Part shown: one piece after another, positions 47,073-60,456 of the stretch
Numbering within the stretch: position 1 is the first letter of the stretch
How the letters are laid out: every line of letters begins with the position of its first letter
Origin: Clostridia bacterium
Lineage (GTDB): Bacteria > Bacillota > Clostridia > Oscillospirales > CAG-272
Length of the DNA stretch: 64,000 nt
Direction of reading: 5' to 3'
NCBI GenBank assembly: GCA_017428635.1
Contig: JAFRQK010000027.1
Location: 6,748 to 70,747 of the forward strand
Translations under genes and position numbers: made by a program
The notes under the pieces: generated by a model
The model's database searches: none
Seen by the model: only the letters and a program-made list of their open reading frames with translations
Told to the model about the DNA's origin: nothing

Positions 47073-49472
47073 TCAGTTTCCGGCGAGGTACGCTTTGAGT
47101 ACGGGTACGTCCGACGCGTCGACCGTTCCGTTCGCGTCGGCGTCGGCGCCCGTCTTATTGATAATAAGCGCTTCGCCTTTGAGATAACGTCTCAGGAAGG
47201 CGAGATCTTTCATTACGATATATCCGTCTGCGTCGGCGTCGTACCGCGCGGCGGACGGGATCGCGGCTATGTAATCGGACTCTGCCGTCGGACCAGACTG
47301 AACTGCGTAATATATTCCGTCGCGCACCGTGACGCCGTACAGGTCGTGGCCGCCGTCCGGCAGGCGGAACAGACAATTGACGACGCCGGTCGCGGGATCG
47401 AACGAGACGATCTCACGCGGGGTATTGTAAACGAGAGCCCCGTTGCAGTTGCAAAGGCCCGAGAAATATCCGAACCAGAAATAGCCGTGGGTCTCCGTCT
47501 CCCACATTTCGGAAAGCGTTCTGACAGTCGACGATCTTACGAGATCGGGAGTCTTCATGATCGCAAATCCCGAACCTGCGCTCCCGATAAAGTACCATGA
47601 TCCGTCAAGCGGAACGAACGGCGTTGTGACGCCGTGCCAGATCGCTCCCTCGTACGACTTGTCGGTACAGGCGATGTCGTCACCGTATCCCTTCCACCCG
47701 TAATGCGGGTCTCTCCCGTCTTCGGACGACGATACGTATTCGTCCGAAACGAGGAAATACGTGTGGATCGCGGAGCCTAGCTGATCGGGGATCGGATCGT
47801 CCCATGCAAGGTCGACGTGATACCACTTTCCGCCTATCTGAACGCGGTTCCACGTGTGGTTCATGGCGGTGCTTATGACGGCGTCGACGTTGATACCGAA
47901 GCGTTTGAGGACCTCGATGTAGAGCAGCGTGTACGCCTGACATACTCCGCGCTTTTCCTTGAAGAAGTTATAAACGTCGTGGATCGCGTACGAGGTGTCG
48001 TATTCGAACCCGGTCAGGATATAGTCGTGAACGAACAGCGCCTTTTCAAGGTCGCTCCACGAGCGGTCGACGAGCGAACATAACGAATCTATCTCCGCTT
48101 CGTATTCGGCTTTCATTCTCTTTATCTGTTCCGCGTCAGTGATCGTATATCTGGGGTAAAATTCATAGATCTTTCCGGTCGTTTTGCTCTGAGAATACGT
48201 GTACATTATATCGACGTAGAAAAGATCGGGAACGGTATTTATTATCTCCTGAAACGCCCACTGTAATTTGTCGTCGTCCAGATCGTACTCCGAGACGTCG
48301 ATGCTCCCGGAAAATTCTCTCATCCCGGAGACGAGGGCATCGATCGCGCCGGACGCGGAGGAACCGGAAGCGCGGGATCCGTCGAGAAATACCTGCGCCG
48401 CGCCGTCGCGGAGAACGGAGCCGCCGCTTTGCGCCGCCGCCTCCTCACCGTCCGCATCGTTCGATCTTTTGAGGAAAGTGACGACCTGTCCTCTCGTGCA
48501 GGTGGCTTTCGGCGAGAAATGCGTCGCGTCCGTTCCGTTTGTGATATTGTTTTCGACCGCCCAGAGGACCGCGTCGCAGAAAAAGTCCCCGCTCTTAACG
48601 TCTTCGAACGGGTTCTTTGCGCCCCCGACCTTCGGCGAGCCTTTCCATCTGAACAGGAAAGTGACGATCTGTCCTCTCGTGCAGGTGGCTTTCGGCGAGA
48701 AATGCGTCGCGTCGGTACCTTTGGTGATCTCCTTTTCGACCGCCCAGAGGACCGCCTTGTAATAATACTGATCGGAAGCGACGTCCTCGAAGGGGTTCTT
48801 CTTCGTCGTCGGTTCGGGTTCGCCCGCCGTTCTCCAGAGGAAGGTCACGACCTGCGCGCGTGTGCATCCCGCTTTCGGCGAGAAATGCGTCGCGTCCGTT
48901 CCGTTTGTGATATTGTTTTCGACCGCCCAGCTCACGGCTTCGGCGTAATACGCGTCCGGATCGACGTCTTCAAAACGGGAGAGCGCGCCTCCTCTGACCT
49001 TGACCGCGCCGTTCGTGACTTTGAACGAAACGCTCTTGAGCGATACGTTGACGAAATCGCCCGGAAGATACGAGACGCTGACGGGCTGAGACCCCGAAGG
49101 GGCGTCGCCGCTGATCCTGAATTTCAGGGTGACGAGCGTTCCGTTCTTTGCGTTATCCTTCGAGGCGAGCGTGTCGTCCCACGTGACGTAGTACGGGTTT
49201 GCCGATCTGTTGTTTCCGAAGTTCGCTCCGGAGAGAACTCCGCCGTCCGTGACGCCCGTAAGCTCCAGATATTCGCCGTAACTGACGGCGAGACGTCCGG
49301 CGCATACGCCCGGGTTTCCCGTCATGGCGACGGTGACGGACACCTCTTTACCCGGCGTACCGCTGACCGTTGAGACGGTGATCGCGGGACTTGCGGCAAA
49401 CGACGTCACCGGCATGATCCCCGTCAGGAACACGGCGGCGAGGACAGCAGCGAGGATCCTGATCTTTTTCAT
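47073..49472 (-). CDS. Secreted cohesin - SLH-like x3 - transglutaminase-like (papain-fold) - dockerin protein
   Basis: True start is ATG 49472 (GGAGAAGAGG upstream; signal peptide MKKIRILAAVLAAVFLTGIMPVTSFA); the track ORF is over-extended to 49748. Cohesin: ITVSTVSGTPGKEVSVTVAMTGNPGVCAGRLAVSY...YYVTWDD...LVTLKFRI. Transglutaminase-core-like: RGVCQAYTLLY...NHTWNRVQIGGKWYHVDLAWDD. Dockerin: DADADGYIVMKDLAFLRRYL...DADANGTVDASDVPVLKAYL. Confidence 0.75.
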   Translation of the reverse strand: MKKIRILAAVLAAVFLTGIMPVTSFAASPAITVSTVSGTPGKEVSVTVAMTGNPGVCAGRLAVSYGEYLELTGVTDGGVLSGANFGNNRSANPYYVTWDDTLASKDNAKNGTLVTLKFRISGDAPSGSQPVSVSYLPGDFVNVSLKSVSFKVTNGAVKVRGGALSRFEDVDPDAYYAEAVSWAVENNITNGTDATHFSPKAGCTRAQVVTFLWRTAGEPEPTTKKNPFEDVASDQYYYKAVLWAVEKEITKGTDATHFSPKATCTRGQIVTFLFRWKGSPKVGGAKNPFEDVKSGDFFCDAVLWAVENNITNGTDATHFSPKATCTRGQVVTFLKRSNDADGEEAAAQSGGSVLRDGAAQVFLDGSRASGSSASGAIDALVSGMREFSGSIDVSEYDLDDDKLQWAFQEIINTVPDLFYVDIMYTYSQSKTTGKIYEFYPRYTITDAEQIKRMKAEYEAEIDSLCSLVDRSWSDLEKALFVHDYILTGFEYDTSYAIHDVYNFFKEKRGVCQAYTLLYIEVLKRFGINVDAVISTAMNHTWNRVQIGGKWYHVDLAWDDPIPDQLGSAIHTYFLVSDEYVSSSEDGRDPHYGWKGYGDDIACTDKSYEGAIWHGVTTPFVPLDGSWYFIGSAGSGFAIMKTPDLVRSSTVRTLSEMWETETHGYFWFGYFSGLCNCNGALVYNTPREIVSFDPATGVVNCLFRLPDGGHDLYGVTVRDGIYYAVQSGPTAESDYIAAIPSAARYDADADGYIVMKDLAFLRRYLKGEALIINKTGADADANGTVDASDVPVLKAYLAGN
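48476..48950 (-). repeat. SLH-coding repeat, copy C (inverted relative to A and B, more diverged)
   Basis: Reverse complement aligns with copies A/B and includes identical runs such as GGGCGAACCCGAACCGACGACGAAGAAGAACCCCTTC. Boundaries are approximate. Confidence 0.7.
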
Positions 49473-49524
49473 ATTACGACCTCTTCTCCGGCAGTGACCG
49501 GATTCATATTCTTTGTTTAATGTA

Positions 49525-49553
49525 ATTATACTATCACCTTTTGGTTTTTTCAA
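49525..49553 (-). promoter_or_regulatory. Promoter of the cohesin-SLH gene (TTGAAA-17 nt-TATAAT)
   Basis: Minus strand: -35 at 49553-49548 and -10 at 49530-49525. Confidence 0.55.
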
Positions 49554-49655
49554 CCCGCGCGGCAGGGACAAATATTCACTTTTTTTTGAAATTTTCAATA
49601 AATGTTCAATAAAGTCAGGTATAATGGTGTTAAAACAGGACGGGAGGAAAAAACG

Positions 49656-50000
49656 TTGAAAGTTTTGATAGCTGCCCCGGACAGAGATCTGCTCGACAGC
49701 CTGAGCGGTCTCCTCGCCCTTCGGGGCTGGGAGGCGGACGCGGCGCACGACGGAGCCATGGCGGCGGAAAAATCACGGGCCGTCAGGTACGGCGCGGCTC
49801 TGGTCGACGAAAAGATCCCTCTGATACGCTCCGCGGATCTGATAAAGGAATTCGAAGAGTCCGGCATACCCGCGATCCTTATGACGGAAGATCCGGGGGC
49901 GCGCGGGGACGCGGTGATAAAATACCCGTTCACACCGGAAGAACTCTTCTCGGTCATCGGAAGAGTTGCGGCGGGAAAGGAGAAAACGGAAAATGAATAA
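49656..50000 (+). CDS. Stand-alone receiver (REC) domain protein with no output domain and atypical acidic pocket
   Basis: TTG 49656 lies 8 nt after GGGAGG. LKVLIAAPDRDLL... replaces the usual DD/DE pair. Putative phospho-Asp (ALVDEKIP), Thr (AILMTE) and Lys (IKYPF) are retained. ~114 aa. Confidence 0.6.
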   Translation: MKVLIAAPDRDLLDSLSGLLALRGWEADAAHDGAMAAEKSRAVRYGAALVDEKIPLIRSADLIKEFEESGIPAILMTEDPGARGDAVIKYPFTPEELFSVIGRVAAGKEKTENE

Positions 50001-51183
50001 AGTGAGAAGAAAACTCGTGCTCTCCGCCATGGCGGCGCTGTTCGTTCTTCTGACGGCGCTGCTCGCCGTGGTGAACGTGATCAACTTCGCTCTCGTCGCG
50101 GAGGACGCAGACAGGATAACTGCGACGATCGCGGAGGGCGGCGGAGAATTCAGGGACAAGATGAAAAACGGGGAGACGGCGAACTCCGGCGGTCCGATGG
50201 GACCCGGCTCGCCCGAAACTCCGTTCACGGCGCGCTATTTCACCGTCCGCTTCGACAAGAACGGCAAAGCGGAGACGGTCGCGCACAATATCTCCGCTTT
50301 TACCGAGGATGAGGCGATCGAGGTCGCTTCGGGTCTCAAAGGAGATAAGAGGACCGGATGGGTGATGAGATCGTACCGGTACCGGGTATATAAAAAGAGC
50401 GGAAACGTGTACGTCACCGTGATCGATCAGGGAAGAGAACTCACCCCGTCCTATCGCATCCTCGCCGTTTCCGCCGTCGGAGAGGCGGTCGTGCTGATCC
50501 TGTGCTTCATCTTTCTCTCCGCGTTCAGCAAAAGACTGATAAGACCGATAGAAGAAGCGGACAGAAAACAGAAAAAGTTCATCGGCGAGGCCGAGGCGGC
50601 GTTCAAAGTGCCGCTCACGGTGATCGGCGCGGACGTTGAGATAATCGAAAGGACGTCCGGCCCGACCGAGCGCACCGGATCGATCAGACGGCAGGTCGGA
50701 AAAATGACCGAGATAACGAAAAGGCTGCGTACCATGTCGCTGATCGACGGAGAAGAGGAATCCTTCGACCTGAGCGAGGCGGCGAAGAAAGCGGCTTATG
50801 AAACGGCGGACAGGTTTTCGGTGCGCGGTATCGACCTCGGCATTGATATTGCCGACGGCGTTAAGATAAAAGCGGACGGCAAAGCCGTATCGGACGCGGT
50901 GACGGAACTTTTGGAGAACGCCGCGAAATTCGCGAAGAGCCGCGCGTCGCTCGCTCTGAAGCGAGACGGCGACCGCGTGACGCTCACGGTCACTAACGAC
51001 ACGGATCTTCCGGACGGGCCCGTCGAGCAGGCTTTCGACCGGTTCGTAAGACTTCCGAACGCGGAAGGCGCGGCGGGCGGCGGCATCGGACTTGCCCGCG
51101 TGCGCGACACGGTACGCGAGGCGGGAGGCAGAGTCGGCGCCTCATGCTCAGGCGGCGAGTTCACCGTCCGGGCGACGTTCTGA
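49993..51183 (+). CDS. Histidine-kinase paralog lacking the phospho-acceptor histidine (pseudo-kinase)
   Basis: ATG 49993 follows AAAGGAG. Two TM segments. The H-box position reads KKFIGEAEAAFKVPLTVI versus KQFVSDAGHELKTPISVI in the paralog at 53339. The HATPase_c part is retained (LLENAAKFA, GGGIGLARV). Confidence 0.7.
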   Translation: MNKVRRKLVLSAMAALFVLLTALLAVVNVINFALVAEDADRITATIAEGGGEFRDKMKNGETANSGGPMGPGSPETPFTARYFTVRFDKNGKAETVAHNISAFTEDEAIEVASGLKGDKRTGWVMRSYRYRVYKKSGNVYVTVIDQGRELTPSYRILAVSAVGEAVVLILCFIFLSAFSKRLIRPIEEADRKQKKFIGEAEAAFKVPLTVIGADVEIIERTSGPTERTGSIRRQVGKMTEITKRLRTMSLIDGEEESFDLSEAAKKAAYETADRFSVRGIDLGIDIADGVKIKADGKAVSDAVTELLENAAKFAKSRASLALKRDGDRVTLTVTNDTDLPDGPVEQAFDRFVRLPNAEGAAGGGIGLARVRDTVREAGGRVGASCSGGEFTVRATF

Positions 51184-51197
51184 GGGAGGCGGGAAAA

Positions 51198-51926
51198 ATG
51201 GTCATCGTTCAGAATCCCGTCGTAGTGATGAAACGCTTCGAGCTGAAATATATAATCAGCGCGGAGCAGGAGGCGCGTCTGGTCGAGGGACTCAAAGGTC
51301 ACATGGAACCGGACGAATTCGGTACGACTTCGATAGCGAGTCTGTACTACGACACGCCGGAATACCGGCTGATAAACGCCTCGCTCGAAAAACCCTTTTT
51401 CAAGGAAAAGATGCGGCTCCGCTCGTACGGACTTGCGACGGAGGAATCTCCCGTCTTTCTCGAACTCAAGAGGAAAGCGTACGGGATCGTATATAAAAGA
51501 CGCGTTCAGACGACCGTCCCGCTCGTGAGGAAATTCTTTGCGGGAGAGGGCGAGATCTGCGCGGAAGGCCAGATAAACAAAGAGATCACGTATTTCCGCG
51601 ATTTTTACGGAAACCTCGCGCCCGCCTGCCTGATAATCTGCGAGCGCACGGCGTACGCGGAACCGGACGGCGATCTCAGGATCACGATAGACAACGCCCC
51701 GAGATACAGGACGGAGAAACTCGACCTCACGACGTCGATGGAAGGCGCGCTCCTTCTTCCAGAGGGATCCTCGATCCTCGAGATCAAGGTTCAGGAGGCG
51801 ATGCCTATGTGGCTCTGTCACCTGCTCGACAGGGAACGGATATTCAAGAACAGTTTTTCCAAATACGGAGAAGCATATAAAAGACAAATGTCAAAAATAA
51901 CGGCTCACAAGGCGCCCGTCGCCTGA
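51198..51926 (+). CDS. VTC-domain (polyphosphate polymerase-like, CYTH/TTM fold) protein
   Basis: ATG 51198 follows GGGAGG. MKRFELKYIISAEQEARLVEGLKGHMEPDEFG...YYDTPEYRL...RLRSY is typical of bacterial VTC (PF09359-type) proteins. Confidence 0.8.
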   Translation: MVIVQNPVVVMKRFELKYIISAEQEARLVEGLKGHMEPDEFGTTSIASLYYDTPEYRLINASLEKPFFKEKMRLRSYGLATEESPVFLELKRKAYGIVYKRRVQTTVPLVRKFFAGEGEICAEGQINKEITYFRDFYGNLAPACLIICERTAYAEPDGDLRITIDNAPRYRTEKLDLTTSMEGALLLPEGSSILEIKVQEAMPMWLCHLLDRERIFKNSFSKYGEAYKRQMSKITAHKAPVA

Positions 51927-51957
51927 TGCCGAGCGAATATCAAGGAGGAAAACAAAA

Positions 51958-52629
51958 ATGTTTGATTCGATCTATTCCACCGCGGTCACGGCGTCGCAGT
52001 TCTTCATCATGGCAGCCGCCGCCGTCGTATCAGGCGTCGTTTACGCGATAATCATGTCGTTCAGGATCAGGTCGACGAAGAGATTCTTCATCGTCACCGC
52101 GCTCATTCCTTTCGTCGTCGCGGCGGTCATCACGTTCGTCAACGGAAACATCGGAGCGGGCGTTGCGATAGGCGGGGCTTTCAGTCTGATCCGTTTCCGT
52201 TCCGCGCAGGGCAGCGCGGACGAGATCGCCGCGATCCTCATCGCGATGGGATCCGGTATCGCGTTCGGAATGGGGTATATCGGCTACGGGATCCTTATCC
52301 TCGTCTGCCTCTCCGTTCTCTTTCTGCTTCTGTCCTTCATTCCCGTGTTTGAACATAAGAATATGGCGAAGGACAAGCTGCTCCGCGTCACCATCCCCGA
52401 ATCGCTCGAGTATCACGACGTTTTCAACGATACGTTCGGCCATTATCTCAGCTCATACGAATGCGTCGGCGTCAAGACGACCGGTATGGGATCCATGTTC
52501 CGCCTCTCTTTCAGGATCAGAATGAAGGAGACGGGTGAGGAAAAGGCGTTTATCGACGAGCTGAGAACGAAGAACGGAAACCTCGAGATCGCGATCACGC
52601 CTTACGAGGACGTTGCGAACCAGCTCTGA
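51958..52629 (+). CDS. DUF4956-family membrane protein
   Basis: Four or five TM helices. Motif GGAFSLIRFRSAQGSADEIAAILIAMGSGIAFGMGY. Usual partner of VTC-domain genes. Confidence 0.7.
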   Translation: MFDSIYSTAVTASQFFIMAAAAVVSGVVYAIIMSFRIRSTKRFFIVTALIPFVVAAVITFVNGNIGAGVAIGGAFSLIRFRSAQGSADEIAAILIAMGSGIAFGMGYIGYGILILVCLSVLFLLLSFIPVFEHKNMAKDKLLRVTIPESLEYHDVFNDTFGHYLSSYECVGVKTTGMGSMFRLSFRIRMKETGEEKAFIDELRTKNGNLEIAITPYEDVANQL

Positions 52630-52662
52630 TCACTCAACACTCTTTAAGGAGGCGACCTTCTT

Positions 52663-53349
52663 ATGAAGATCCTTGTGGCTGAGGACGAAAAGAGGATGAG
52701 CCGCGCTCTGTGCGAGATACTCCGCCTGGAAAAATACGAGGTCGACGCCGCGTCTGACGGCGAGGAGGCTCTCGACGCGATCGGGAGCGGCGTATACGAC
52801 GTGATCGTTCTCGACGTGATGATGCCCCGGATGAACGGACTCGAAGTCGCGCGCGAGGTCAGACGGCGCGGTATCAGGACGCCGATCCTCATGCTGACGG
52901 CGAGGTCGGAACTCGACGACAAGGTCACGGGACTCGACAGCGGGGCGGACGATTATCTGACGAAGCCGTTCATGACGAAGGAACTGCTCGCGCGGATCCG
53001 CGCTCTCTGCCGCAGACAGGTGAATACGCCTGACGGCAGTCTGAAATTCGGCGATATATCCCTCGACGTGCAGGGGGCGAATCTCACGTGCTCGCGCACC
53101 GGGCAGAGCGTCCGCCTCGGCGAAAAGGAGATGCGGATCCTCGAATATATGATCGCAAATCAGGGTCAGGTGCTCACGCGCGAACAACTCGCGGTAAAGA
53201 TATGGGGCTTCGAGAGCGAAGCGGAGTACAACAACGTCGAGGTCTATATGACTTTCACGAGAAAAAAACTGAATTTTCTCGGATCGAAATGCGCGATCAA
53301 GGCGGTCCGGGGAGTAGGCTACGAATTGAGGTATGACGATGTTCCGTAA
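52663..53349 (+). CDS. OmpR-family response regulator
   Basis: MKILVAEDEKRM, VIVLDVMMPRMNG, TKPF. Winged helix LGEKEMRILEYMIAN...RGVGYEL. Confidence 0.9.
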   Translation: MKILVAEDEKRMSRALCEILRLEKYEVDAASDGEEALDAIGSGVYDVIVLDVMMPRMNGLEVAREVRRRGIRTPILMLTARSELDDKVTGLDSGADDYLTKPFMTKELLARIRALCRRQVNTPDGSLKFGDISLDVQGANLTCSRTGQSVRLGEKEMRILEYMIANQGQVLTREQLAVKIWGFESEAEYNNVEVYMTFTRKKLNFLGSKCAIKAVRGVGYELRYDDVP

Positions 53350-54616
53350 ATCGAGGATCAAAATAGTCGTTCTGATAATGGCGTCTCTCGTGCTCTTTCT
53401 CGCGCTGACGCTCGGCGTTATCTACGTGTCGAGCCGCATTTCCGCCGGCGCGAAAAACGAGCAGATGCTGAAACGGTTCGTCGAGGGAACAAAAGAAGAA
53501 CTCAGGATCGATCAGGGCGGAGGGGAACCGCCCGTTGGGGAACCGCCCGAAGGTGAACCGCCTGCGGGATCGCCCGGCAGAGACCGCCGCGGAGAACCCG
53601 GGGACGATCTGTTCGGAGCGTCGACGTTCTACTCCGTCGAATTTGATTCGGCGGGCGAGGCCGTATCAGTCGACTCCGGCAGAAACGACAGCATAGACCG
53701 GGACGAACTCGTCGCCGCGGCGCGCGAGGCGGTCGCCTCGGGCAAAAAGGCCGGGCGTACGGGCAGATTCGTGTTCGCCGTCGAAGACAGAGCGGACGGC
53801 AAATTCGTCGCGTTCATCGACAGTTCGGTGACGGACGACAACCTGACGACGCTTCTGAAAAACGAACTGGTCATCGGCGGCGTCGCGCTGATCGCCGTCT
53901 TTATCCTTTCGCTCTTTATATCCTCGCGGATCATAAAACCGCTCGAGGAGAACGACAAGAGACAGAAACAGTTCGTCTCCGACGCGGGGCACGAGCTGAA
54001 AACGCCGATCTCCGTCATCAGCGCGAACACGGAGATCCTCTCGCGCGGGGGCGACAACGAGTGGCTCTCGAACATACGGTACGAGACGGAAAAGATGGGA
54101 TCGCTCGTGTGCGATCTGCTCCGCCTCTCACGGGCGGAAAACGCGGAGAGGGTGAACGAGGCCGTCGATCTTTCCCGCCTTGTCGAAGGCGAAGAGCTGC
54201 CGTTTGAGACGGTCGCGTTCGAACGCGGCGTCACGATAGACGCGGAAATTGCGGACGGCGTAGCGGTCGAGGGAGATCCGGGCCAGCTGAAACAGCTGAC
54301 GGCGATCCTGCTCGACAATGCGATCCGCCACGGAACGGGCGACCGGATAGTCCTCTCGCTCGGAGCGGATCACCGATCGGCGATCCTGCGCGTCACAAAC
54401 GACGGCGAGGAGATACCTAAAGAGGTCAGGGAACGGCTCTTCGAGCGGTTTTACAGACGCGACGAGGCGCGCGGGGCGGACGACGGTTTCGGCCTCGGTC
54501 TGGCGATCGCCAAGGCGATAACGGAGGCGCACGGCGGGTCGATCGGCGTCGGATGCCGGGACGGGAAAGTGGAATTCACCGTCACGCTCCCGCTGATCCA
54601 CGGAAAAAAATCATAA
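53339..54616 (+). CDS. Sensor histidine kinase
   Basis: ATG 53339 lies 7 nt after GAGG (the track starts at 53333). H-box SDAGHELKTPISVI, N-box LLDNAIRHG, G-box GFGLGLAIAKAI. Extracytoplasmic region with a Pro/Glu-rich stretch. Confidence 0.85.
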   Translation: MFRKSRIKIVVLIMASLVLFLALTLGVIYVSSRISAGAKNEQMLKRFVEGTKEELRIDQGGGEPPVGEPPEGEPPAGSPGRDRRGEPGDDLFGASTFYSVEFDSAGEAVSVDSGRNDSIDRDELVAAAREAVASGKKAGRTGRFVFAVEDRADGKFVAFIDSSVTDDNLTTLLKNELVIGGVALIAVFILSLFISSRIIKPLEENDKRQKQFVSDAGHELKTPISVISANTEILSRGGDNEWLSNIRYETEKMGSLVCDLLRLSRAENAERVNEAVDLSRLVEGEELPFETVAFERGVTIDAEIADGVAVEGDPGQLKQLTAILLDNAIRHGTGDRIVLSLGADHRSAILRVTNDGEEIPKEVRERLFERFYRRDEARGADDGFGLGLAIAKAITEAHGGSIGVGCRDGKVEFTVTLPLIHGKKS

Positions 54617-54672
54617 TTACTAACGGAAATAAATAAAACTTTCATATATTCGGAAGAACGGAGGATGAGAAG

Positions 54673-55218
54673 ATGAACATTACGCTTTACGGAGCCGCGA
54701 GCGAAAAAGTAGACGCGATCTACAAGGAAGAGGTCGAAAAACTCGGGGCGGAGATGGCGCGGCGCGGTCACACGATGGTGTTCGGAGGCGGCGCGTCCGG
54801 ACTGATGGGCGCGGCGGCGCGCGGGATGAAGGCGGGCGGCGGCAGGATAATCGGGATAACTCCCCGCTTTATCCACGAATTCGAGCCGATATTCGACGGC
54901 TGCACGGAACTGATCGATACGAAGACGCTGAGCGAGAGGAAGGACAAGATGGAGTCCCTCGCCGACGCGTTCATAATCGTGCCGGGCGGTATCGGAACGT
55001 TCGACGAGTTTTTCCAGATCCTTACCCTGAGATCTCTCGGAAGACACACGAAGCCGATCGTTCTTTTCAACGTCAAGAATTTCTGGGACAATATGCTCTC
55101 CGTCGTCGGATCGGATATGTTCAAGGGATTCATCGGCACTTACGTCGCGGACTGTTTCACGGTCTGTGAAACGGCGGAGTCGGCTTTCGCGTATCTCGAA
55201 GAAAAAGCGGGCAAATAA
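54673..55218 (+). CDS. LOG-family (TIGR00730) nucleotide 5'-monophosphate nucleosidase / cytokinin riboside-5'-monophosphate phosphoribohydrolase-like protein
   Basis: GGGASGLMGAAARG and PGGIGTFDEFFQ motifs. 181 aa. Confidence 0.85.
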   Translation: MNITLYGAASEKVDAIYKEEVEKLGAEMARRGHTMVFGGGASGLMGAAARGMKAGGGRIIGITPRFIHEFEPIFDGCTELIDTKTLSERKDKMESLADAFIIVPGGIGTFDEFFQILTLRSLGRHTKPIVLFNVKNFWDNMLSVVGSDMFKGFIGTYVADCFTVCETAESAFAYLEEKAGK

Positions 55219-55233
55219 TACGTATATAGTCGC

Positions 55234-55263
55234 AGTCCCCGTGCAGTTGCACGGGGACTTTTC
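55234..55263 (+). terminator. Rho-independent terminator; last element of the high-GC region
   Basis: AGTCCCCGTGCA-GT-TGCACGGGGACT, then TTTTC. Confidence 0.75.
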
Positions 55264-55389
55264 AATTGTGTATGCCACAAGTTAAAAACGTCTGTTTGTT
55301 TTAATCAGGAGTTCATCTTCCGCCGAATGAAGTTTTTGTTCATTTTCATCCAGTAAAATAAGGTATAGATTTATTTGGATGTGAATAAA

Positions 55390-56235
55390 ATGAAAGAACG
55401 TTTTTTGGGTGAAAAACAACTCGAAGAATTCAGGGAACACCTTATCCGCGGAGAAAAAAGCAAGGCGACGGTTGAAAAATACGTAAGAGACGTAGAGGCG
55501 TTTGCATCATTTGTAAAAGGAAACGAGATTTTGAAAGAGACTGTGATAGCGTATAAAAACGCACTACAAAAAGACGGATATGCACCCAGAAGCATCAATT
55601 CAATGCTTGCGAGCGTTAACAGTTTTCTTTCATTTCTCGGGTGGCATGACCTAAGAGTAAAATCCATTCGAATCCAACATCAGATTTTTTGTTCGGAAGA
55701 AAAAGAACTGTCGAAAGCGGAATTTTCGCGCCTTGTTGAAGCCGCAAAAGCAAAAAGTAATGAGCGGTTGAGTATGATCCTTCAAACGATCTGCGGGACC
55801 GGGATCCGCGTGAGCGAACTTCAGTTTATTACCGTTGAAGCGGTAAAACGCGGCGAGGCAATGGTCTCATGTAAGGGAAAAACCCGCTCGGTGTTTATCG
55901 TACGTGATTTACAGAAAAAATTGCTTCGATATTTATCGGAGCACGAAATAACCGCCGGAAGCGTATTTATCACACGCAGCGGCAAGCCCATAAGTCGAAC
56001 GAATATTTGGCGTGATATGAAATCCTTGTGCGTTGAAGCAAACGTTGATCCGGGAAAGGTGTTTCCGCACAATCTGCGTCATTTGTTTGCCCGTGTCTTT
56101 TACGGAATCGAGAAAGATATAGCAAAATTAGCAGATGTTCTCGGTCACAGCAGTATTGATACCACGCGTATTTATATAGTGAGCACCGGCGCAGAACACC
56201 GCAAGCGAATGGAGAGAATGAAGCTGATAATATAA
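55390..56235 (+). CDS. Tyrosine site-specific recombinase (phage-integrase/XerD-like family); predicted invertase of the adjacent switch
   Basis: ATG 55390 lies 5 nt after GGATGTGA (the track TTG is at 55375). N-terminal SAM-like core-binding domain (LEEFREHLIRGEKSKATVEKYVRDVEAF). Catalytic contexts GTGIRVSELQFI (Arg), HNLRHLFA (His-x-x-Arg), GHSSIDTTRIY (His...Tyr). Confidence 0.85.
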   Translation: MKERFLGEKQLEEFREHLIRGEKSKATVEKYVRDVEAFASFVKGNEILKETVIAYKNALQKDGYAPRSINSMLASVNSFLSFLGWHDLRVKSIRIQHQIFCSEEKELSKAEFSRLVEAAKAKSNERLSMILQTICGTGIRVSELQFITVEAVKRGEAMVSCKGKTRSVFIVRDLQKKLLRYLSEHEITAGSVFITRSGKPISRTNIWRDMKSLCVEANVDPGKVFPHNLRHLFARVFYGIEKDIAKLADVLGHSSIDTTRIYIVSTGAEHRKRMERMKLII

Positions 56236-56257
56236 AAAAGCCGCCATTGAGCGGCGG

Positions 56258-56281
56258 ATGATTACATAATCGGTATTATGT
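56258..56281 (+). repeat. Left inverted repeat (IR-L) of the putative invertible element
   Basis: ATGATTACATAATCGGTATTATGT. Its exact reverse complement occurs at 56497-56520. Confidence 0.95.
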
Positions 56282-56327
56282 CATAATAAAGCGACCGACA
56301 AGTTCCATACACATATATATATGCTTT

Positions 56328-56356
56328 ATAATAACACACGACGGGGATTAAGTCAA
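56328..56356 (-). promoter_or_regulatory. Strong promoter inside the invertible core, currently pointing left (TTGACT-17 nt-TATTAT, with a TGn extension)
   Basis: Minus strand: -35 at 56356-56351 and -10 at 56333-56328, preceded by TGT. Confidence 0.6.
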
Positions 56357-56416
56357 TAAAGCAAAGCAAAATAATGAACGTTTTTTTATCAAATCATTAA
56401 GAACTGCAACGAGATC

Positions 56417-56470
56417 CCCCTTATACGGTTTGTCAAAAACCGAAAATTAAGGGGCTCTTTTTTTGCGCTC
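56417..56470 (+). terminator. Hairpin + T-run inside the invertible core, active for rightward transcription in the present orientation
   Basis: CCCCTTA (56417-56423) pairs with TAAGGGG (56448-56454). Inner stem CGGTTT/AAACCG. Followed by CTCTTTTTTTGCGCTCTTTTTT. Confidence 0.55.
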
Positions 56471-56496
56471 TTTTTTGTGCATATTCAGACGATGTA

Positions 56497-56520
56497 ACAT
56501 AATACCGATTATGTAATCAT
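56497..56520 (-). repeat. Right inverted repeat (IR-R)
   Basis: ACATAATACCGATTATGTAATCAT, the reverse complement of IR-L. Confidence 0.95.
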
Positions 56521-56539
56521 TATTTTTTGGAGGCGAAAA

Positions 56540-57034
56540 ATGGTAAAAAAAATGCTGGTTATTCTGTTGGCTTCAACCCTTTTGCTTAGCTTATTAACAA
56601 TTTCAGCTTGCAAAAAAGAAGAAGGGAATGAGAATAAAACGGATGGGAAGGCGGCATACGGTCTAGCCGTCGAAAAAGGATATGAAGGGACAAAAGAGCA
56701 ATGGATCGCCGCTCTGGTCGGCGAAACGGTCCCCGGCGAGAACGAGACCGCGTATGACGTGGCATGTAACCGCGGATATACCGGTTCGTTCGACGAATGG
56801 ATGAAAGCCCTGACGGGATATACGGTCGAGGACGAAACAACCCCCGCATACGGAGTTATGGTAACGAAAGGGTATTCCGGATCTTTGACGGAATGGTTGA
56901 ACTCTCTTGTCGACGCGCCGGAGGAGCTCGGGCATTCGACCGGAGAGAACAAATCGGAATATGAACTCGCTTGTGAATACGGCTTTGAAGGGACTTATAT
57001 CGAGTGGATGGTGTCCCTTGTGAGTAAATATTAA
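56540..57034 (+). CDS. Small lipoprotein made of four copies of a ~24-aa (S/A)AY-x-(L/V)A-x3-G(Y/F)-x-G(T/S)-x3-W(L/I/M)-x-(S/A)L motif
   Basis: GGAGG lies 6 nt upstream. Lipobox LLTISAC. Repeats AAYGLAVEKGYEGTKEQWIAALVG, TAYDVACNRGYTGSFDEWMKALTG, PAYGVMVTKGYSGSLTEWLNSLV, SEYELACEYGFEGTYIEWMVSLV. Confidence 0.7.
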   Translation: MVKKMLVILLASTLLLSLLTISACKKEEGNENKTDGKAAYGLAVEKGYEGTKEQWIAALVGETVPGENETAYDVACNRGYTGSFDEWMKALTGYTVEDETTPAYGVMVTKGYSGSLTEWLNSLVDAPEELGHSTGENKSEYELACEYGFEGTYIEWMVSLVSKY

Positions 57035-57063
57035 AAAAAATTTAAAGATGGAGGACAGAAATT

Positions 57064-60000
57064 TTGAAGAGACTCAAAAAGCTTCTCTCTGTCATTCTGG
57101 CGGTCGCTATGCTGGCGACGTTCGGGATGACAGCCCTTGCAGCGGACGTTGAGTACGTTGACGTTGCAAAGGGAGATCGGTATTACGATCAGATAATACT
57201 GGTGTCAAAAGCAGGTATTATGGTGGGAAAGGACGAGACCCATTTCTCGCCGGACGATTACGTGACAAGGGCGGAGATGGCTGCAATTCTGTGGCGTCTC
57301 GAGGGAGAACCCGGGGGCTATACGTGTGATTTTGCAGACGTCGACGCGGGCGCGTGGTACTATCCCGCAGTTGCGTGGCTCAAGGTTTTCGGACTGGCGA
57401 ACGGTATCGGCGGAAATCGTTTTGCTCCGGAACAGACTCTTACCCGCGAACAGATGGCGGCGATGCTTTATCGCTACGCTTCTCATAAATTCATTATTTG
57501 GGTGACGCCGATTGAACTCGGGAATTACGCGGACGGGAAATCTGTTTCTTCATATGCAGAGGACGCTGTAAAGTGGATGATAATGTACAACGTTCTTCAG
57601 GCAGACGGGGACAAGATCCGTCCTGCAGATCCCGCTACACGTGCTGAAGTCGCTTCCGGAGTGTCGATCTTCTTTATGGAGGACGGCAGACTCGTTAATA
57701 CAGGCGGCAAGTCGGCTTACGATCTCGCCGTTGAAAACGGGTATACCGGAACGGTTCAGGAATGGCTCGCTTCTCTTGCCGGAGCGAACGGCAAGGATGG
57801 TGTCGACGGCAAGGACGGAAAAGACGGTCAAAACGGAAAATCGGCGTATGATCTTGCCGTGGAGAACGGTTACGTAGGAACCGTTGAAGACTGGCTTGCA
57901 TCTCTTGTCGGCGCACCGGGTAAAGACGGCGTTGACGGCAAAGACGGCGTTGACGGAAAAGACGGCGTCGATGGCAAAGACGGCGTTGACGGCAAAGACG
58001 GAGTCGATGGCAAAGATGGTGTCGACGGTAAAGACGGGGTCGATGGCAAGGACGGCGTTGACGGAAAAGACGGCGTTGACGGCAAAGACGGCGTCGACGG
58101 CAAAGACGGAGTCGACGGTAAAGACGGCGTTGACGGTAAAGACGGCGTCGACGGCAAAGACGGAGTCGACGGTAAAGACGGCGTTGACGGTAAAGACGGC
58201 GTCGACGGCAAAGACGGCGTTGACGGTAAAGACGGCGTCGACGGTAAAGACGGCGTCGATGGTAAAGACGGAGTCGACGGTAAGGACGGCGTGGACGGAA
58301 AGTCCGCTTACGATCTCGCTGTTGAAAATGGCTTCACCGGTTCCGTTCAGGATTGGCTGGCGTCGCTTTCGGGTGACGGCAAAAACGGTGAGAACGGCAA
58401 GTCCGCATATGATCTTGCCGTGGAGAACGGTTACGTAGGAACCGTTGAAGACTGGCTCACATCGCTTGTCGGAGCTCCCGGTCGCGATGGCGTCGACGGC
58501 AAAGACGGCGTCGACGGTAAAGACGGCGTCGATGGCAAAGACGGCGTTGACGGCAAAGACGGAGTCGATGGCAAAGATGGTGTCGACGGTAAAGACGGGG
58601 TCGATGGCAAGGACGGCGTTGACGGCAAAGACGGCGTTGACGGCAAAGACGGCGTCGATGGAAAAGACGGCGTCGATGGAAAAGACGGAAAAGACGGTGC
58701 TGACGGGAAATCCGCATACGAACTCGCTGTAGAAAACGGATTCGAGGGGTCCCTTCAGGATTGGCTGGCGTCGCTTTCGGGCGACGGCAAAAACGGTGAG
58801 GACGGCAAGTCCGCATATGACCTTGCCGTGGAGAACGGTTACGAAGGAACCGTACAGGATTGGCTCGCATCGCTTTCGGGCGACGGCAAGAACGGCGAGG
58901 ACGGCAAGTCCGCATACGAACTCGCAGTCGATCACGGATATAACGGATCGGAAATCGAATGGCTCCGCTCTCTTGCCGGTGCAAACGGCAAGTCTGCTTA
59001 TGAGCTCGCCGTCGATCACGGCTATAACGGGTCGGAGATCGAATGGCTTGCGTCACTGGTCGGTGAGACCGGTGCAGACGGCAAATCAGCGTACGAGGTC
59101 GCCGTTGATCACGGCTATAACGGATCGGAGACCGATTGGCTCGCTTCTCTTATAGGTCCTTCCGGCGCAAAGGGAGCTGACGGAGCAAACGGCAAGTCCG
59201 CTTACGAACTCGCCGTTGAAAACGGATACGAAGGCGATCTCGTTTCGTGGCTCGATTCGCTCCGCGGTAAGGACGGCAAAGACGGTGTCGACGGTAAGGA
59301 CGGACAGGACGGCAAAGACGGCGTCGACGGTCAGGATGGCAAGTCCGCATATGAGGTCGCGGTTGAGAACGGATATCAGGGAAGCGTAACGGAATGGCTT
59401 GTCTCCCTTATCGGCGCTTCCGGACGTGACGGCGTTGACGGTAGAGACGGCGTTGACGGAAAAGACGGGCAGGACGGCGCTCCCGGTCGTGACGGTGTCA
59501 ACGGTCAGGACGGTAAATCTGCATTTGAAGTCGCGGTTGAGAACGGATACCAAGGAAACGTTACGGATTGGCTGCTCTCTCTTGTCGGCGCTCCCGGTCG
59601 TGACGGAGTCGATGGTAAAGACGGAGTCGACGGCAAAGACGGCATCGACGGCAAAGACGGCATCGACGGCAAAGACGGTGTCGACGGTAAAGACGGTATT
59701 GACGGAAAAGACGGACAGGACGGTCAGAATGGAGCGGGCGTATCGAACGCGTACGTAAACGATGAACTTCATCTTATTCTTGTCCTCTCCGACGGCACCG
59801 AGATTGACGCAGGGTATGTTGGCGTGTCTGGACAAAATCAGCCTGTAACGAATCAGTATACGGTAACGTTCAAGGATTGGGACGGAACCGTTTTGAAAAC
59901 TCAGACAGTTAATGCAGGCGAGGATGCTGTTCCTCCTGTCATTCCGACACGTGATGGTTATACCTTTACTGGCTGGAGCGAATCATATACTAATGTGACG

Positions 60001-60444
60001 GCAAGTATTACTGTTTGTGCAAATTATTCCGAAAGTATATCTGGCGCAACGTTTATTGTTGATAGCTTTTCGGCAAATGCTGGTGAAACGGTAGATGTAA
60101 CAATCAGGGTAAAGAATAATCCCGGAGTGGCAGGCGCAATTCTTACATTTACATTTGATGATCATCTTTCCTTGATTTCTGCATCACCCGGTGAAGCATT
60201 TTCTGAACTCCAGCTTACCAAACCTGGGAAATTCGTATCTCCGTGTAATTTCCCATGGGATTCCGAAAGTGGAATGGCAACAGATGACGGCGTCATCTTG
60301 ACATTGCAATTTAAAGTATCTGAGAATGTTTCATCCGGTGATAAACTAAATATTGTTTGCTCATATAAAATTGGCGATATCTATGACGAAAATCTTGATA
60401 ACGTTAGTTTCAGTATTATTAATGGTTGTATTACTGTAAAATAA
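57064..60444 (+). CDS. SLH-anchored collagen-like surface protein with a C-terminal cohesin domain
   Basis: TTG start 8 nt after GGAGGA. Signal peptide ...FGMTALA. Three SLH repeats. 12 copies of KSAY(D/E)LAVENGY.G....WL.SL.G interleaved with G-X-Y tracts (GKDGVD)n. Listeria-Bacteroides type repeat YTVTFKDWDGTVLKTQTVNAGEDAVPPVIPTRDGYTFTGW. Cohesin FIVDSFSANAGETVDVTIRVKNNPGVAGAILTFTFDD...NFPWDSE...ILTLQFKV. Confidence 0.8.
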   Translation: MKRLKKLLSVILAVAMLATFGMTALAADVEYVDVAKGDRYYDQIILVSKAGIMVGKDETHFSPDDYVTRAEMAAILWRLEGEPGGYTCDFADVDAGAWYYPAVAWLKVFGLANGIGGNRFAPEQTLTREQMAAMLYRYASHKFIIWVTPIELGNYADGKSVSSYAEDAVKWMIMYNVLQADGDKIRPADPATRAEVASGVSIFFMEDGRLVNTGGKSAYDLAVENGYTGTVQEWLASLAGANGKDGVDGKDGKDGQNGKSAYDLAVENGYVGTVEDWLASLVGAPGKDGVDGKDGVDGKDGVDGKDGVDGKDGVDGKDGVDGKDGVDGKDGVDGKDGVDGKDGVDGKDGVDGKDGVDGKDGVDGKDGVDGKDGVDGKDGVDGKDGVDGKDGVDGKDGVDGKDGVDGKDGVDGKSAYDLAVENGFTGSVQDWLASLSGDGKNGENGKSAYDLAVENGYVGTVEDWLTSLVGAPGRDGVDGKDGVDGKDGVDGKDGVDGKDGVDGKDGVDGKDGVDGKDGVDGKDGVDGKDGVDGKDGVDGKDGKDGADGKSAYELAVENGFEGSLQDWLASLSGDGKNGEDGKSAYDLAVENGYEGTVQDWLASLSGDGKNGEDGKSAYELAVDHGYNGSEIEWLRSLAGANGKSAYELAVDHGYNGSEIEWLASLVGETGADGKSAYEVAVDHGYNGSETDWLASLIGPSGAKGADGANGKSAYELAVENGYEGDLVSWLDSLRGKDGKDGVDGKDGQDGKDGVDGQDGKSAYEVAVENGYQGSVTEWLVSLIGASGRDGVDGRDGVDGKDGQDGAPGRDGVNGQDGKSAFEVAVENGYQGNVTDWLLSLVGAPGRDGVDGKDGVDGKDGIDGKDGIDGKDGVDGKDGIDGKDGQDGQNGAGVSNAYVNDELHLILVLSDGTEIDAGYVGVSGQNQPVTNQYTVTFKDWDGTVLKTQTVNAGEDAVPPVIPTRDGYTFTGWSESYTNVTASITVCANYSESISGATFIVDSFSANAGETVDVTIRVKNNPGVAGAILTFTFDDHLSLISASPGEAFSELQLTKPGKFVSPCNFPWDSESGMATDDGVILTLQFKVSENVSSGDKLNIVCSYKIGDIYDENLDNVSFSIINGCITVK
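57910..58305 (+). repeat. Collagen-like tract 1: 44 uninterrupted G-X-Y codon triplets, 21 copies of an 18-bp GGN-AAR-GAY-GGN-GTN-GAY unit
   Basis: Counted directly from the sequence. Units differ only at synonymous third positions. Confidence 0.95.
58471..58713 (+). repeat. Collagen-like tract 2: 27 G-X-Y triplets; shares an identical ~90-bp block with tract 1
   Basis: The block GGCAAAGACGGCGTTGACGGCAAAGACGGAGTCGATGGCAAAGATGGTGTCGACGGTAAAGACGGGGTCGATGGCAAGGACGGCGTTGAC occurs in both tracts. Confidence 0.9.
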
Positions 60445-60456
60445 GGAGAATATACC

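Follow-up and report, generated by a model that had tools for sequence, protein, structure and literature searches.

A probable recombinase-linked invertible promoter switch before a surface-protein operon in a Clostridia bacterium, and its family of relatives with dif-like sites

Does a short element lying between a tyrosine recombinase gene and a set of surface-protein genes act as a promoter switch that flips? The question is raised by a 64,000-nt stretch of contig JAFRQK010000027.1 (assembly GCA_017428635.1, Clostridia bacterium), referred to here as the window, in which two inverted repeats and the core between them form a 263-bp element just downstream of a gene for an Xer-like tyrosine recombinase and just upstream of three co-oriented surface-protein genes. 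Phase variation is well studied in gut Bacteroides and in pathogens; to our knowledge, few accounts of it exist for the gut Clostridia (Oscillospirales, Acutalibacteraceae and relatives), which are abundant and for the most part uncultured. An earlier note, made from the letters of the window alone, had read the element as an inverton assembled in its OFF orientation. We consider it very probable that the 263-bp element is an invertible promoter switch run by the recombinase encoded just upstream. The parts on which this reading rests are the following.

55390-56235, plus strand: Xer-like tyrosine recombinase, 281 aa, the presumed invertase (Pfam; stop codon TAA at 56233-56235)
56257-56231, minus strand: leftward terminator-like hairpin with T-run (terminator scan; fold -10.4 kcal/mol, z = -2.75)
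56258-56281, no strand: left inverted repeat (IR-L), 24 nt, with the 18-nt recombination site ACATAAT-CGGT-ATTATGT at 56264-56281
56282-56496, no strand: invertible core, 215 nt between the repeats, whose homologues occur in both orientations in relatives
56356-56328, minus strand: sigma-70-type promoter TTGACT-17-TGnTATTAT (promoter scan), pointing at the recombinase gene as assembled
56417-56476, plus strand: core hairpin with T-runs, behind the promoter (-23.2 kcal/mol, z = -3.6)
56497-56520, no strand: right inverted repeat (IR-R), 24 nt, with the site ACATAAT-ACCG-ATTATGT at 56497-56514

The repeats are exact. IR-L (ATGATTACATAATCGGTATTATGT) and IR-R, its reverse complement, are 24 nt long, 100% complementary and separated by 215 nt, and sequence shuffles gave a chance expectation of 0 for such a repeat. 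Only 22 nt lie between the recombinase stop codon and IR-L, and 19 nt between the end of IR-R and the ATG at 56540; the earlier note had placed the perfect 24-bp repeats, the 215-bp core and both of these distances exactly. It had also thought further copies of the repeat worth seeking. There was no third copy within the 64-kb window, even with up to 3 mismatches allowed, and the exact 24-nt repeat had 0 matches in GTDB genomes, among which a species carrying the identical repeat is apparently not represented. Within each repeat, the part taken to be functional is 18 nt long, a dif-like dyad that reads ACATAAT-CGGT-ATTATGT on the left, and the two sites begin 29 and 262 nt past the recombinase stop codon. 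The dyad can be written ACATAA-TNNNNA-TTATGT, with an inner palindrome and a 6-bp central region, as in Xer dif sites. The IR-R spacer, ACCG, is the reverse complement of the IR-L spacer, CGGT. Paired inverted dyads with matching asymmetric crossover sequences are what a tyrosine recombinase requires for inversion. No further copies of the 18-nt site were found within the 64-kb window, and there was no sign there of a multi-site shufflon. An Rfam scan of 55200-57100 returned nothing relevant, with no known riboswitch or leader in the untranslated region.

The enzyme encoded beside these sites contains the Phage_integrase domain (PF00589, 8e-23) and an N-terminal SAM-like domain (PF02899, SAM_1) according to Pfam. 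In an alignment with XerA (PDB 4a8e), the catalytic residues are matched by Arg (GIRVSEL), Lys, H-x-x-R (PHNLRH), His (LGHSS) and Tyr (RIY), which confirms the Arg, His-x-x-Arg and His...Tyr contexts recognized in the earlier note. Judged from its sequence, the open reading frame is intact and has the full set of catalytic residues. The nearest solved structures are XerA, XerD and XerH, and the dif-like dyad fits the protein, since its best NCBIfam and PDB matches are XerA, XerD, XerC and XerH. The NCBIfam scores lie under all curated cut-offs, both for the equivalogs XerA (141 vs 220 bits), XerD (125.6 vs 329.6) and XerC (117.7 vs 335) and for the DNA invertases PRK09871 (26.2 vs 222) and PRK09870 (25 vs 221). 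On these scores the recombinase is Xer-like rather than FimB/E-like, a correction to the comparison with fimS and FimB/E in the earlier note as far as the enzyme goes. An identical protein, MBQ6262598.1, is encoded in a metagenome-assembled genome (MAG) labelled 'Clostridia bacterium'. The adjacent recombinase is the presumed catalyst of inversion, given its linkage to the element and the presence of a site at most about 60 nt from the stop codon in 79 of the 80 related loci described below.

We surveyed GTDB species representatives and retrieved at least 537 loci with a relative of the recombinase, of which the best 80, full-length and with 68-74% identity, were analysed; the labels L008-L106 denote the loci from which the switch-cassette family was delineated. 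Homologues of the recombinase run to thousands (at least 8000 proteins at E <= 1e-20). With hundreds of proteins and loci, the window enzyme shares 68-79% identity over its full length, and its 281 aa agree with the 280-281 aa by which the family was delineated. The best 80 loci belong to MAGs of gut and rumen origin that bear the labels Oscillospiraceae, Ruminococcaceae, Acutalibacteraceae or "Clostridia", and several genomes each hold 2-4 copies of the recombinase. The motif ACATAAT-N4-ATTATGT begins 17-60 nt past the recombinase stop codon in 79 of these 80 loci, mostly at 26-29 nt. A second, inverted copy is present in 67 loci, 212-367 nt beyond the first, with inter-site cores given as 222-367 nt (215 nt in the window), and 9 of the 12 single-site loci are contigs that end at most about 320 nt from the recombinase gene. 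Hardly any variation is seen among family loci at the 14 outer positions of the motif, and the rare changes in an arm are mirrored in the partner site. The central 4-nt spacer, in contrast to these arms, varies from locus to locus, with 27 types and no palindrome among them, yet in 66 out of 67 cases one spacer of a locus is the exact reverse complement of the other.

Conservation extends to what lies between and around the sites. The alignment of family cores showed a conserved promoter consensus, cTTga.a-17-TG.TATAAT, and in 54 of the 55 loci with a clear promoter the best match lies 35-56 nt from one site. It points toward the recombinase in 46 loci and toward the downstream genes, in mirror-image geometry, in nine, with 13 ambiguous cases. 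Behind the promoter, the family core consensus contains a conserved hairpin, AAGCCTTTTC...GAAAAGGCTT, between T-rich and A-rich runs. Many loci have a terminator-like match shortly ahead of the far site, on the strand that does not carry the promoter, and many of those sharing the orientation class of the window have plus-strand terminator matches just before site 2. In 59 of 68 loci a leftward terminator separates site 1 from the recombinase gene, and past site 2 the first genes run in the same direction as the recombinase gene in almost every locus. The window has this same layout, with a leftward terminator, a core hairpin and promoter, and a co-oriented operon past site 2.

Both orientations of homologous elements were observed in relatives, with the breakpoints inside the sites. 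The loci L062 (Ruminococcaceae UMGS1623) and L076 (Candidatus Avimonas merdigallinarum), which belong to different species, share collinear flanks, with 94% identity on the left and 99% on the right, while their 255-nt cores are 97% identical as reverse complements only. A second case, within a single species, is provided by a recombinase 75% identical to the window enzyme (P0036), which is encoded identically in seven assemblies from different samples. Five of these loci (L089, L091-L093 and L095) have one orientation and two (L090 and L094) have the 212-nt core flipped. Outside the sites, the flipped copies have the same flanks as the others; when L089 is set against L090, the segment from site to site matches at 99.6%, and does so only as the reverse complement. 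Assemblies also carry signs of mixed orientation within samples. Of the 80 contigs, ten stop within the inverton, four of these at a distance of about 5 nt or less from site 1, and the end of the MEGAHIT contig of L070 is a 99-nt perfect hairpin that unites the native and the flipped left junctions. An assembly at k=141 would yield a chimera of this kind if both orientations were present in the sample. The duplication in L070 (5791-5889 and 6130-6228) extends into the 3' end of the recombinase gene. We did not count L007, which ends 2 nt into IR-L, as this is not where an orientation branch breaks a k=31 graph.

How the window element would work can be proposed from these parts. Two recombinase monomers would bind each dif-like dyad, ACATAA-T-NNNN-A-TTATGT, and, as the asymmetric spacers (CGGT on the left, ACCG on the right) make the sites inverted, strand exchange is expected to flip the core without excision. 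The promoter scan recovered the minus-strand near-consensus promoter of the earlier note (TTGACT-17-TATTAT with TG, 56356-56328), whose -10 element lies 46 nt from IR-L, and the plus-strand core hairpin with its T-run, also described there, is likewise present. In the assembled orientation, presumably OFF, the promoter would fire leftward and a ~90-nt RNA would stop at the terminator at 56257-56231. The core hairpin and T-run would in turn stop transcripts that arrive rightward from the recombinase gene. With 19 nt between IR-R and the ATG, the operon has no room for a promoter of its own and would be silent or nearly so when OFF. In the flipped, ON orientation, the -10 element would stand 46 nt before IR-R and transcription would start a ~82-nt leader containing the 24-nt repeat and the GGAGG of the first gene. 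The genes for the lipoprotein, an anchor protein with collagen-like repeats and a cohesin, and a dockerin protein with leucine-rich repeats (LRRs) would then be transcribed together. The predicted outcome is ON/OFF phase variation of a cohesin-dockerin surface complex.

The leftward terminator, which the earlier note had overlooked, alters one part of its account. It consists of CCGCCGCTCAATGGCGG plus CTTTTTTATA, is not part of IR-L and extends over the recombinase stop codon. This GC-rich hairpin between the stop codon and IR-L has a T-run on the minus strand and none on the plus strand, and it is therefore likely to be oriented against transcripts exiting leftward, not to terminate the recombinase mRNA. 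The promoter does point leftward, as had been claimed, but transcription antisense into the recombinase gene is not expected, as the conserved terminator intervenes. It also bears on whether the element might mainly control the recombinase, through an antisense or convergent transcript under orientational control, with the operon affected secondarily. We regard this as highly improbable. The promoter converges on the recombinase gene in 46 of 55 loci and the short leftward RNA would reach the 3' end of the recombinase mRNA, with an overlap at the terminator, but that same terminator, present in 59 of 68 loci, would halt the transcript before the open reading frame, in a manner that resembles insulation. 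Control of the recombinase also sits poorly with a co-oriented cargo that has no space for a promoter just past site 2 (19 nt in the window), and with the flipped relatives, in which the promoter is correctly placed for the cargo.

Several observations weigh against the promoter-switch reading. Taken alone, the core promoter match is not above chance: the scan of 2 kb of this A+T-rich stretch found 3 promoter-like matches, with 3.6 expected. What makes it convincing is that the same element stands at the same place in family loci. A weak plus-strand candidate, TTGTGC-17-CATAAT, is the sole candidate for leakage and, together with leaky read-through, could give basal expression, in which case OFF may not be tight. 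A split promoter using the CATAAT in IR-R as its -10 element was rejected, as the -35 matches at 3/6 positions, there is no TG and inversion brings no better -35. Orientation at the window locus itself is uniform. We found ~15 consensus assemblies of this locus (L001-L006, L088, L108-L110 and L113-L117) through the recombinase, two near-identical variants and the lipoprotein. All have one orientation, with the promoter toward the recombinase, and among these collinear assemblies there is no flipped consensus, although consensus assemblies give the majority state only and hide minority orientations. L006 had appeared to have a different upstream gene; BLAST shows it to be collinear with the window, and only the gene calling differs. 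The flipped orientation would be marked by the sequence ...GAGCGGCGG-IR-TACATCGTCTGA..., and an exact search of JGI metagenome contigs for the flipped left junction gave 0 matches, a result that is uninformative as the native 24-nt repeat was absent too. Finally, the loci encoding the recombinase P0010 (L097-L106), ten identical assemblies with the promoter toward the cargo, have degenerate sites, ACATACTCTTTGTTATGT and a partner with an insertion. This switch looks as if it had decayed into a locked ON state, and such decayed or locked relatives mean that family membership does not guarantee activity.

Some of these observations lend support to a locked relic, that is, a window copy that no longer inverts meaningfully, with an operon that is silent or expressed by read-through or from the weak plus-strand promoter. 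The ~15 window-locus assemblies, all in one orientation, would be expected of a relic, and the decayed P0010 loci, all in one orientation, and L054, with its mismatched spacers, show what relics may look like. The window copy is different from the P0010 loci in having perfect repeats and an intact recombinase: its 24-nt repeats match throughout, including the complementary spacers, and its open reading frame has retained all catalytic residues. Moreover, consensus assemblies may conceal a minority orientation, and OFF prevails across the family (46 of 55 loci). We thus consider the relic unlikely and infer switching at the window locus from its perfect repeats, its intact enzyme and its membership in a flipping family. 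The OFF call of the earlier note is similarly upheld as an interpretation, supported by the layout and by inversion in relatives and qualified by the constant orientation of the window locus in ~15 assemblies.

An Xer-like recombinase and sites that resemble dif (CATAA-N6-TTATG) raise another possibility, namely that the repeats bound a small non-autonomous mobile element, or serve as the dif-like attachment sites of an integrated element, and form no switch. The G+C content of the region, below that of the upstream genes, would agree with this, as would the finding that the recombinase-plus-inverton block is a module standing beside unrelated genes. The sites, however, are inverted and not direct, an arrangement that leads to inversion and not excision, and inversion of the core is the sole rearrangement in relatives. 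There is no third site upstream of the recombinase, where the best matches equal background, and no other copy of the repeat in the window. The conserved promoter and terminators would also have no role in a transposon. We give this explanation next to no weight and retain the promoter switch.

The limits of the module were apparent from pairs of loci with related recombinases. In five pairs (L013/L027, L031/L039, L042/L077, L068/L069 and L022/L026), DNA similarity of 80-90% gives way to unrelated neighbours, and it spans from ~60-170 nt upstream of the recombinase ATG to 0-5 nt from the outer edge of site 2. We tentatively propose, as a possibility that we rate somewhat below even, that the recombinase-plus-inverton block is a portable, Xer/dif-derived cassette that captures or swaps cargo through site-specific recombination at site 2, is addressed by its spacer and renders diverse functions phase-variable. 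Paralogous cassettes of the same genome (for instance L015/L018/L027 and L023/L025/L054/L079) all have different 4-nt spacers, and the spacer may serve as an address against cross-recombination of paralogous switches. With 27 spacer types, such a difference among paralogues is not significant (P ~0.5).

The genes that the window switch would regulate are listed here.

56540-57034, plus strand: first regulated gene, 164-aa predicted lipoprotein (lipobox), with ribosome-binding site GGAGG at 56529-56533
57064-60444, plus strand: second regulated gene, 1126-aa cell-wall-anchored protein (Pfam/NCBIfam, tandem repeats)
60457-64000, plus strand: third regulated gene, >1181 aa, running off the window (Pfam)

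These genes agree with the three co-oriented surface-protein genes (lipoprotein, collagen-cohesin and giant protein) of the earlier note. The 164-aa lipoprotein holds four AYxxAVxxGYxGTxxEW repeats and has no Pfam, NCBIfam or PADLOC family match. The 1126-aa protein contains three SLH domains, collagen-like GKDGVD arrays, a Flg_new repeat and a C-terminal cohesin, and its stalk shares the AYxxAVxxGYxGTxxEW repeat with the lipoprotein. The >1181-aa protein has a signal peptide, a dockerin, a Flg_new repeat and BspA-type LRRs. As the domains stand, the three products suggest a cohesin-dockerin, adhesin-like surface complex, in which an SLH-anchored collagen-like stalk would end in a cohesin to which the dockerin-bearing BspA-type LRR protein could dock.

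Between 57705 and 59715, the 9/18-nt GKDGVD collagen-like arrays of the SLH-cohesin gene alternate with repeats of 93-174 nt that encode an AYxLAVxNGYxGT motif. The product is 1102 aa long in other assemblies of the same strain and 1126 aa in the window, from which it follows that repeat number varies in this gene. Several contigs of the locus break within the collagen-like arrays. PADLOC gave no matches for the cargo of the window or for the commonest cargo of the family. The G+C content falls from 54-63% (48000-55000) to ~37-47% (55000-64000), beginning just upstream of the recombinase gene and with the collagen repeats excepted. This drop suggests that the recombinase, switch and surface-protein operon belong to a horizontally acquired island whose right end lies past the window. 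On the left, a 12-nt perfect hairpin with a T-run on the plus strand (55234-55259) directly follows an LDcluster4 / lysine-decarboxylase-like gene (54673-55218) and probably acts as a terminator between it and the recombinase gene. Further upstream are a response regulator and a histidine kinase.

Elsewhere in the family the cargo is very different. The most frequent, in 10 of 61 first genes (L028, L030, L034, L055, L057, L069, L072, L084 and others), is an SPFH/Band_7_1 protein that has double zinc ribbons, and the gene after it encodes a membrane protein of ~230 aa. Other cargo includes Flg_new, collagen, LRR, SLH and GGDEF proteins, histidine kinases and a non-ribosomal peptide synthetase. 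In the P0036 loci (L089-L095), the switch stands, in both orientations, before a 1409-aa protein with Condensation, AMP-binding and PP-binding domains, which suggests a phase-variable non-ribosomal peptide synthetase. The same cassette governs such diverse cargo. The results are useful for annotation and for the choice of experimental models. The signature for annotation is an Xer-like recombinase, an inverted ACATAAT-N4-ATTATGT pair and a promoter ~46 nt from one site; with it, hundreds of switches could be annotated and their orientation scored in metagenomes. At the window locus, the prediction is ON/OFF expression of a cohesin-dockerin / collagen-like / LRR complex, likely an adhesin and a likely target of immunity or phages.

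Among known systems, the closest in geometry is inverton group 139 of the hCom2 defined gut community (Microbiome 2025, PMC11892184). The group comprises 33 invertons, 32 of them from Clostridia, in 17 strains, with repeats of 14-26 nt that are ~205-227 nt apart. A tyrosine recombinase, itself not inverton-regulated, stands beside nearly every one, and the pairing of group 139 with invertase group 35 is the strongest statistical link to a tyrosine-recombinase group in the study. The orientation ratio of group 139 shifts across passages and between mucin-attached and planktonic cells. For this Clostridia group, which has the same geometry and a linked tyrosine recombinase, flipping is described both in culture and in mice (PMC11892184). 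The window resembles this group in its host class, its adjacent tyrosine recombinase and its geometry (24-nt repeats, 215 nt apart, with the recombinase gene 22 nt away). Judged by geometry and host range, the window family is probably the family of group 139. None of the hCom2 strains is the window organism, and the study is silent on site anatomy, terminator architecture and module boundaries and does not describe a cargo of SLH-collagen-cohesin and dockerin-LRR proteins (PMC11892184). A literature search for the motif string ACATAAT-N4-ATTATGT returned dif/Xer papers only.

The fimS switch of E. coli with FimB/FimE is similar to the window in that a promoter lies in a short invertible segment beside tyrosine recombinase gene(s) and turns a surface structure ON or OFF. 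FimB and FimE are ~200 aa long, lack the N-terminal SAM-like domain, act on 9-bp repeats and need IHF and Lrp. The window enzyme, by contrast, is Xer-like, has 281 aa and the N-terminal domain, and is paired with an 18-nt dif-like dyad. The RecV switches of Clostridioides difficile (cwpV, flgB and Cdi1-7) share with the window the class Clostridia, a tyrosine recombinase, short segments and surface proteins. In cwpV, regulation proceeds by terminator formation in the leader, and the promoter is outside the invertible segment. RecV works in trans: its several sites are unlinked and differ in their repeats, and Cdi7 alone has a recombinase gene next to it (PMC5903667). At the window, the recombinase appears to act in cis, one per switch, and the segment itself carries the promoter and an insulating hairpin, a difference that emerges from comparing descriptions of the two systems.

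The closest relatives of the window enzyme in sequence and structure belong to the XerC/XerD/XerA-dif systems, and the window site has the dif-like inner palindrome CATAA-N6-TTATG. Unlike Xer-dif resolution, the window has two inverted sites beside the gene and the expected product is inversion; the family has paralogous cassettes within genomes and locus-specific spacers. In Mycoplasma agalactiae, according to two reports, an Xer1-type recombinase encoded beside the vpma locus drives phase or antigenic variation of surface lipoproteins (PMC5634654, PMC2268961). There, a single promoter is moved among several gene copies through inversions that join multiple sites, whereas in the window family there is one two-site cassette per recombinase. 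The invertible promoters of Bacteroides (Mpi; Tsr-type) are also found in gut commensals, control surface structures and occur as OFF/ON mixtures. They differ from the window in phylum, repeat motifs and promoter type, and Mpi is a serine recombinase that acts globally and in trans (PMC5903667). The window locus adds to this known class of invertible promoters and leaves its concept unchanged. What goes beyond the published descriptions is the dif-like site with its locus-specific spacer and the pair of insulating terminators, together with the size of the family, the range of its cargo and the sharp bounds of the module.

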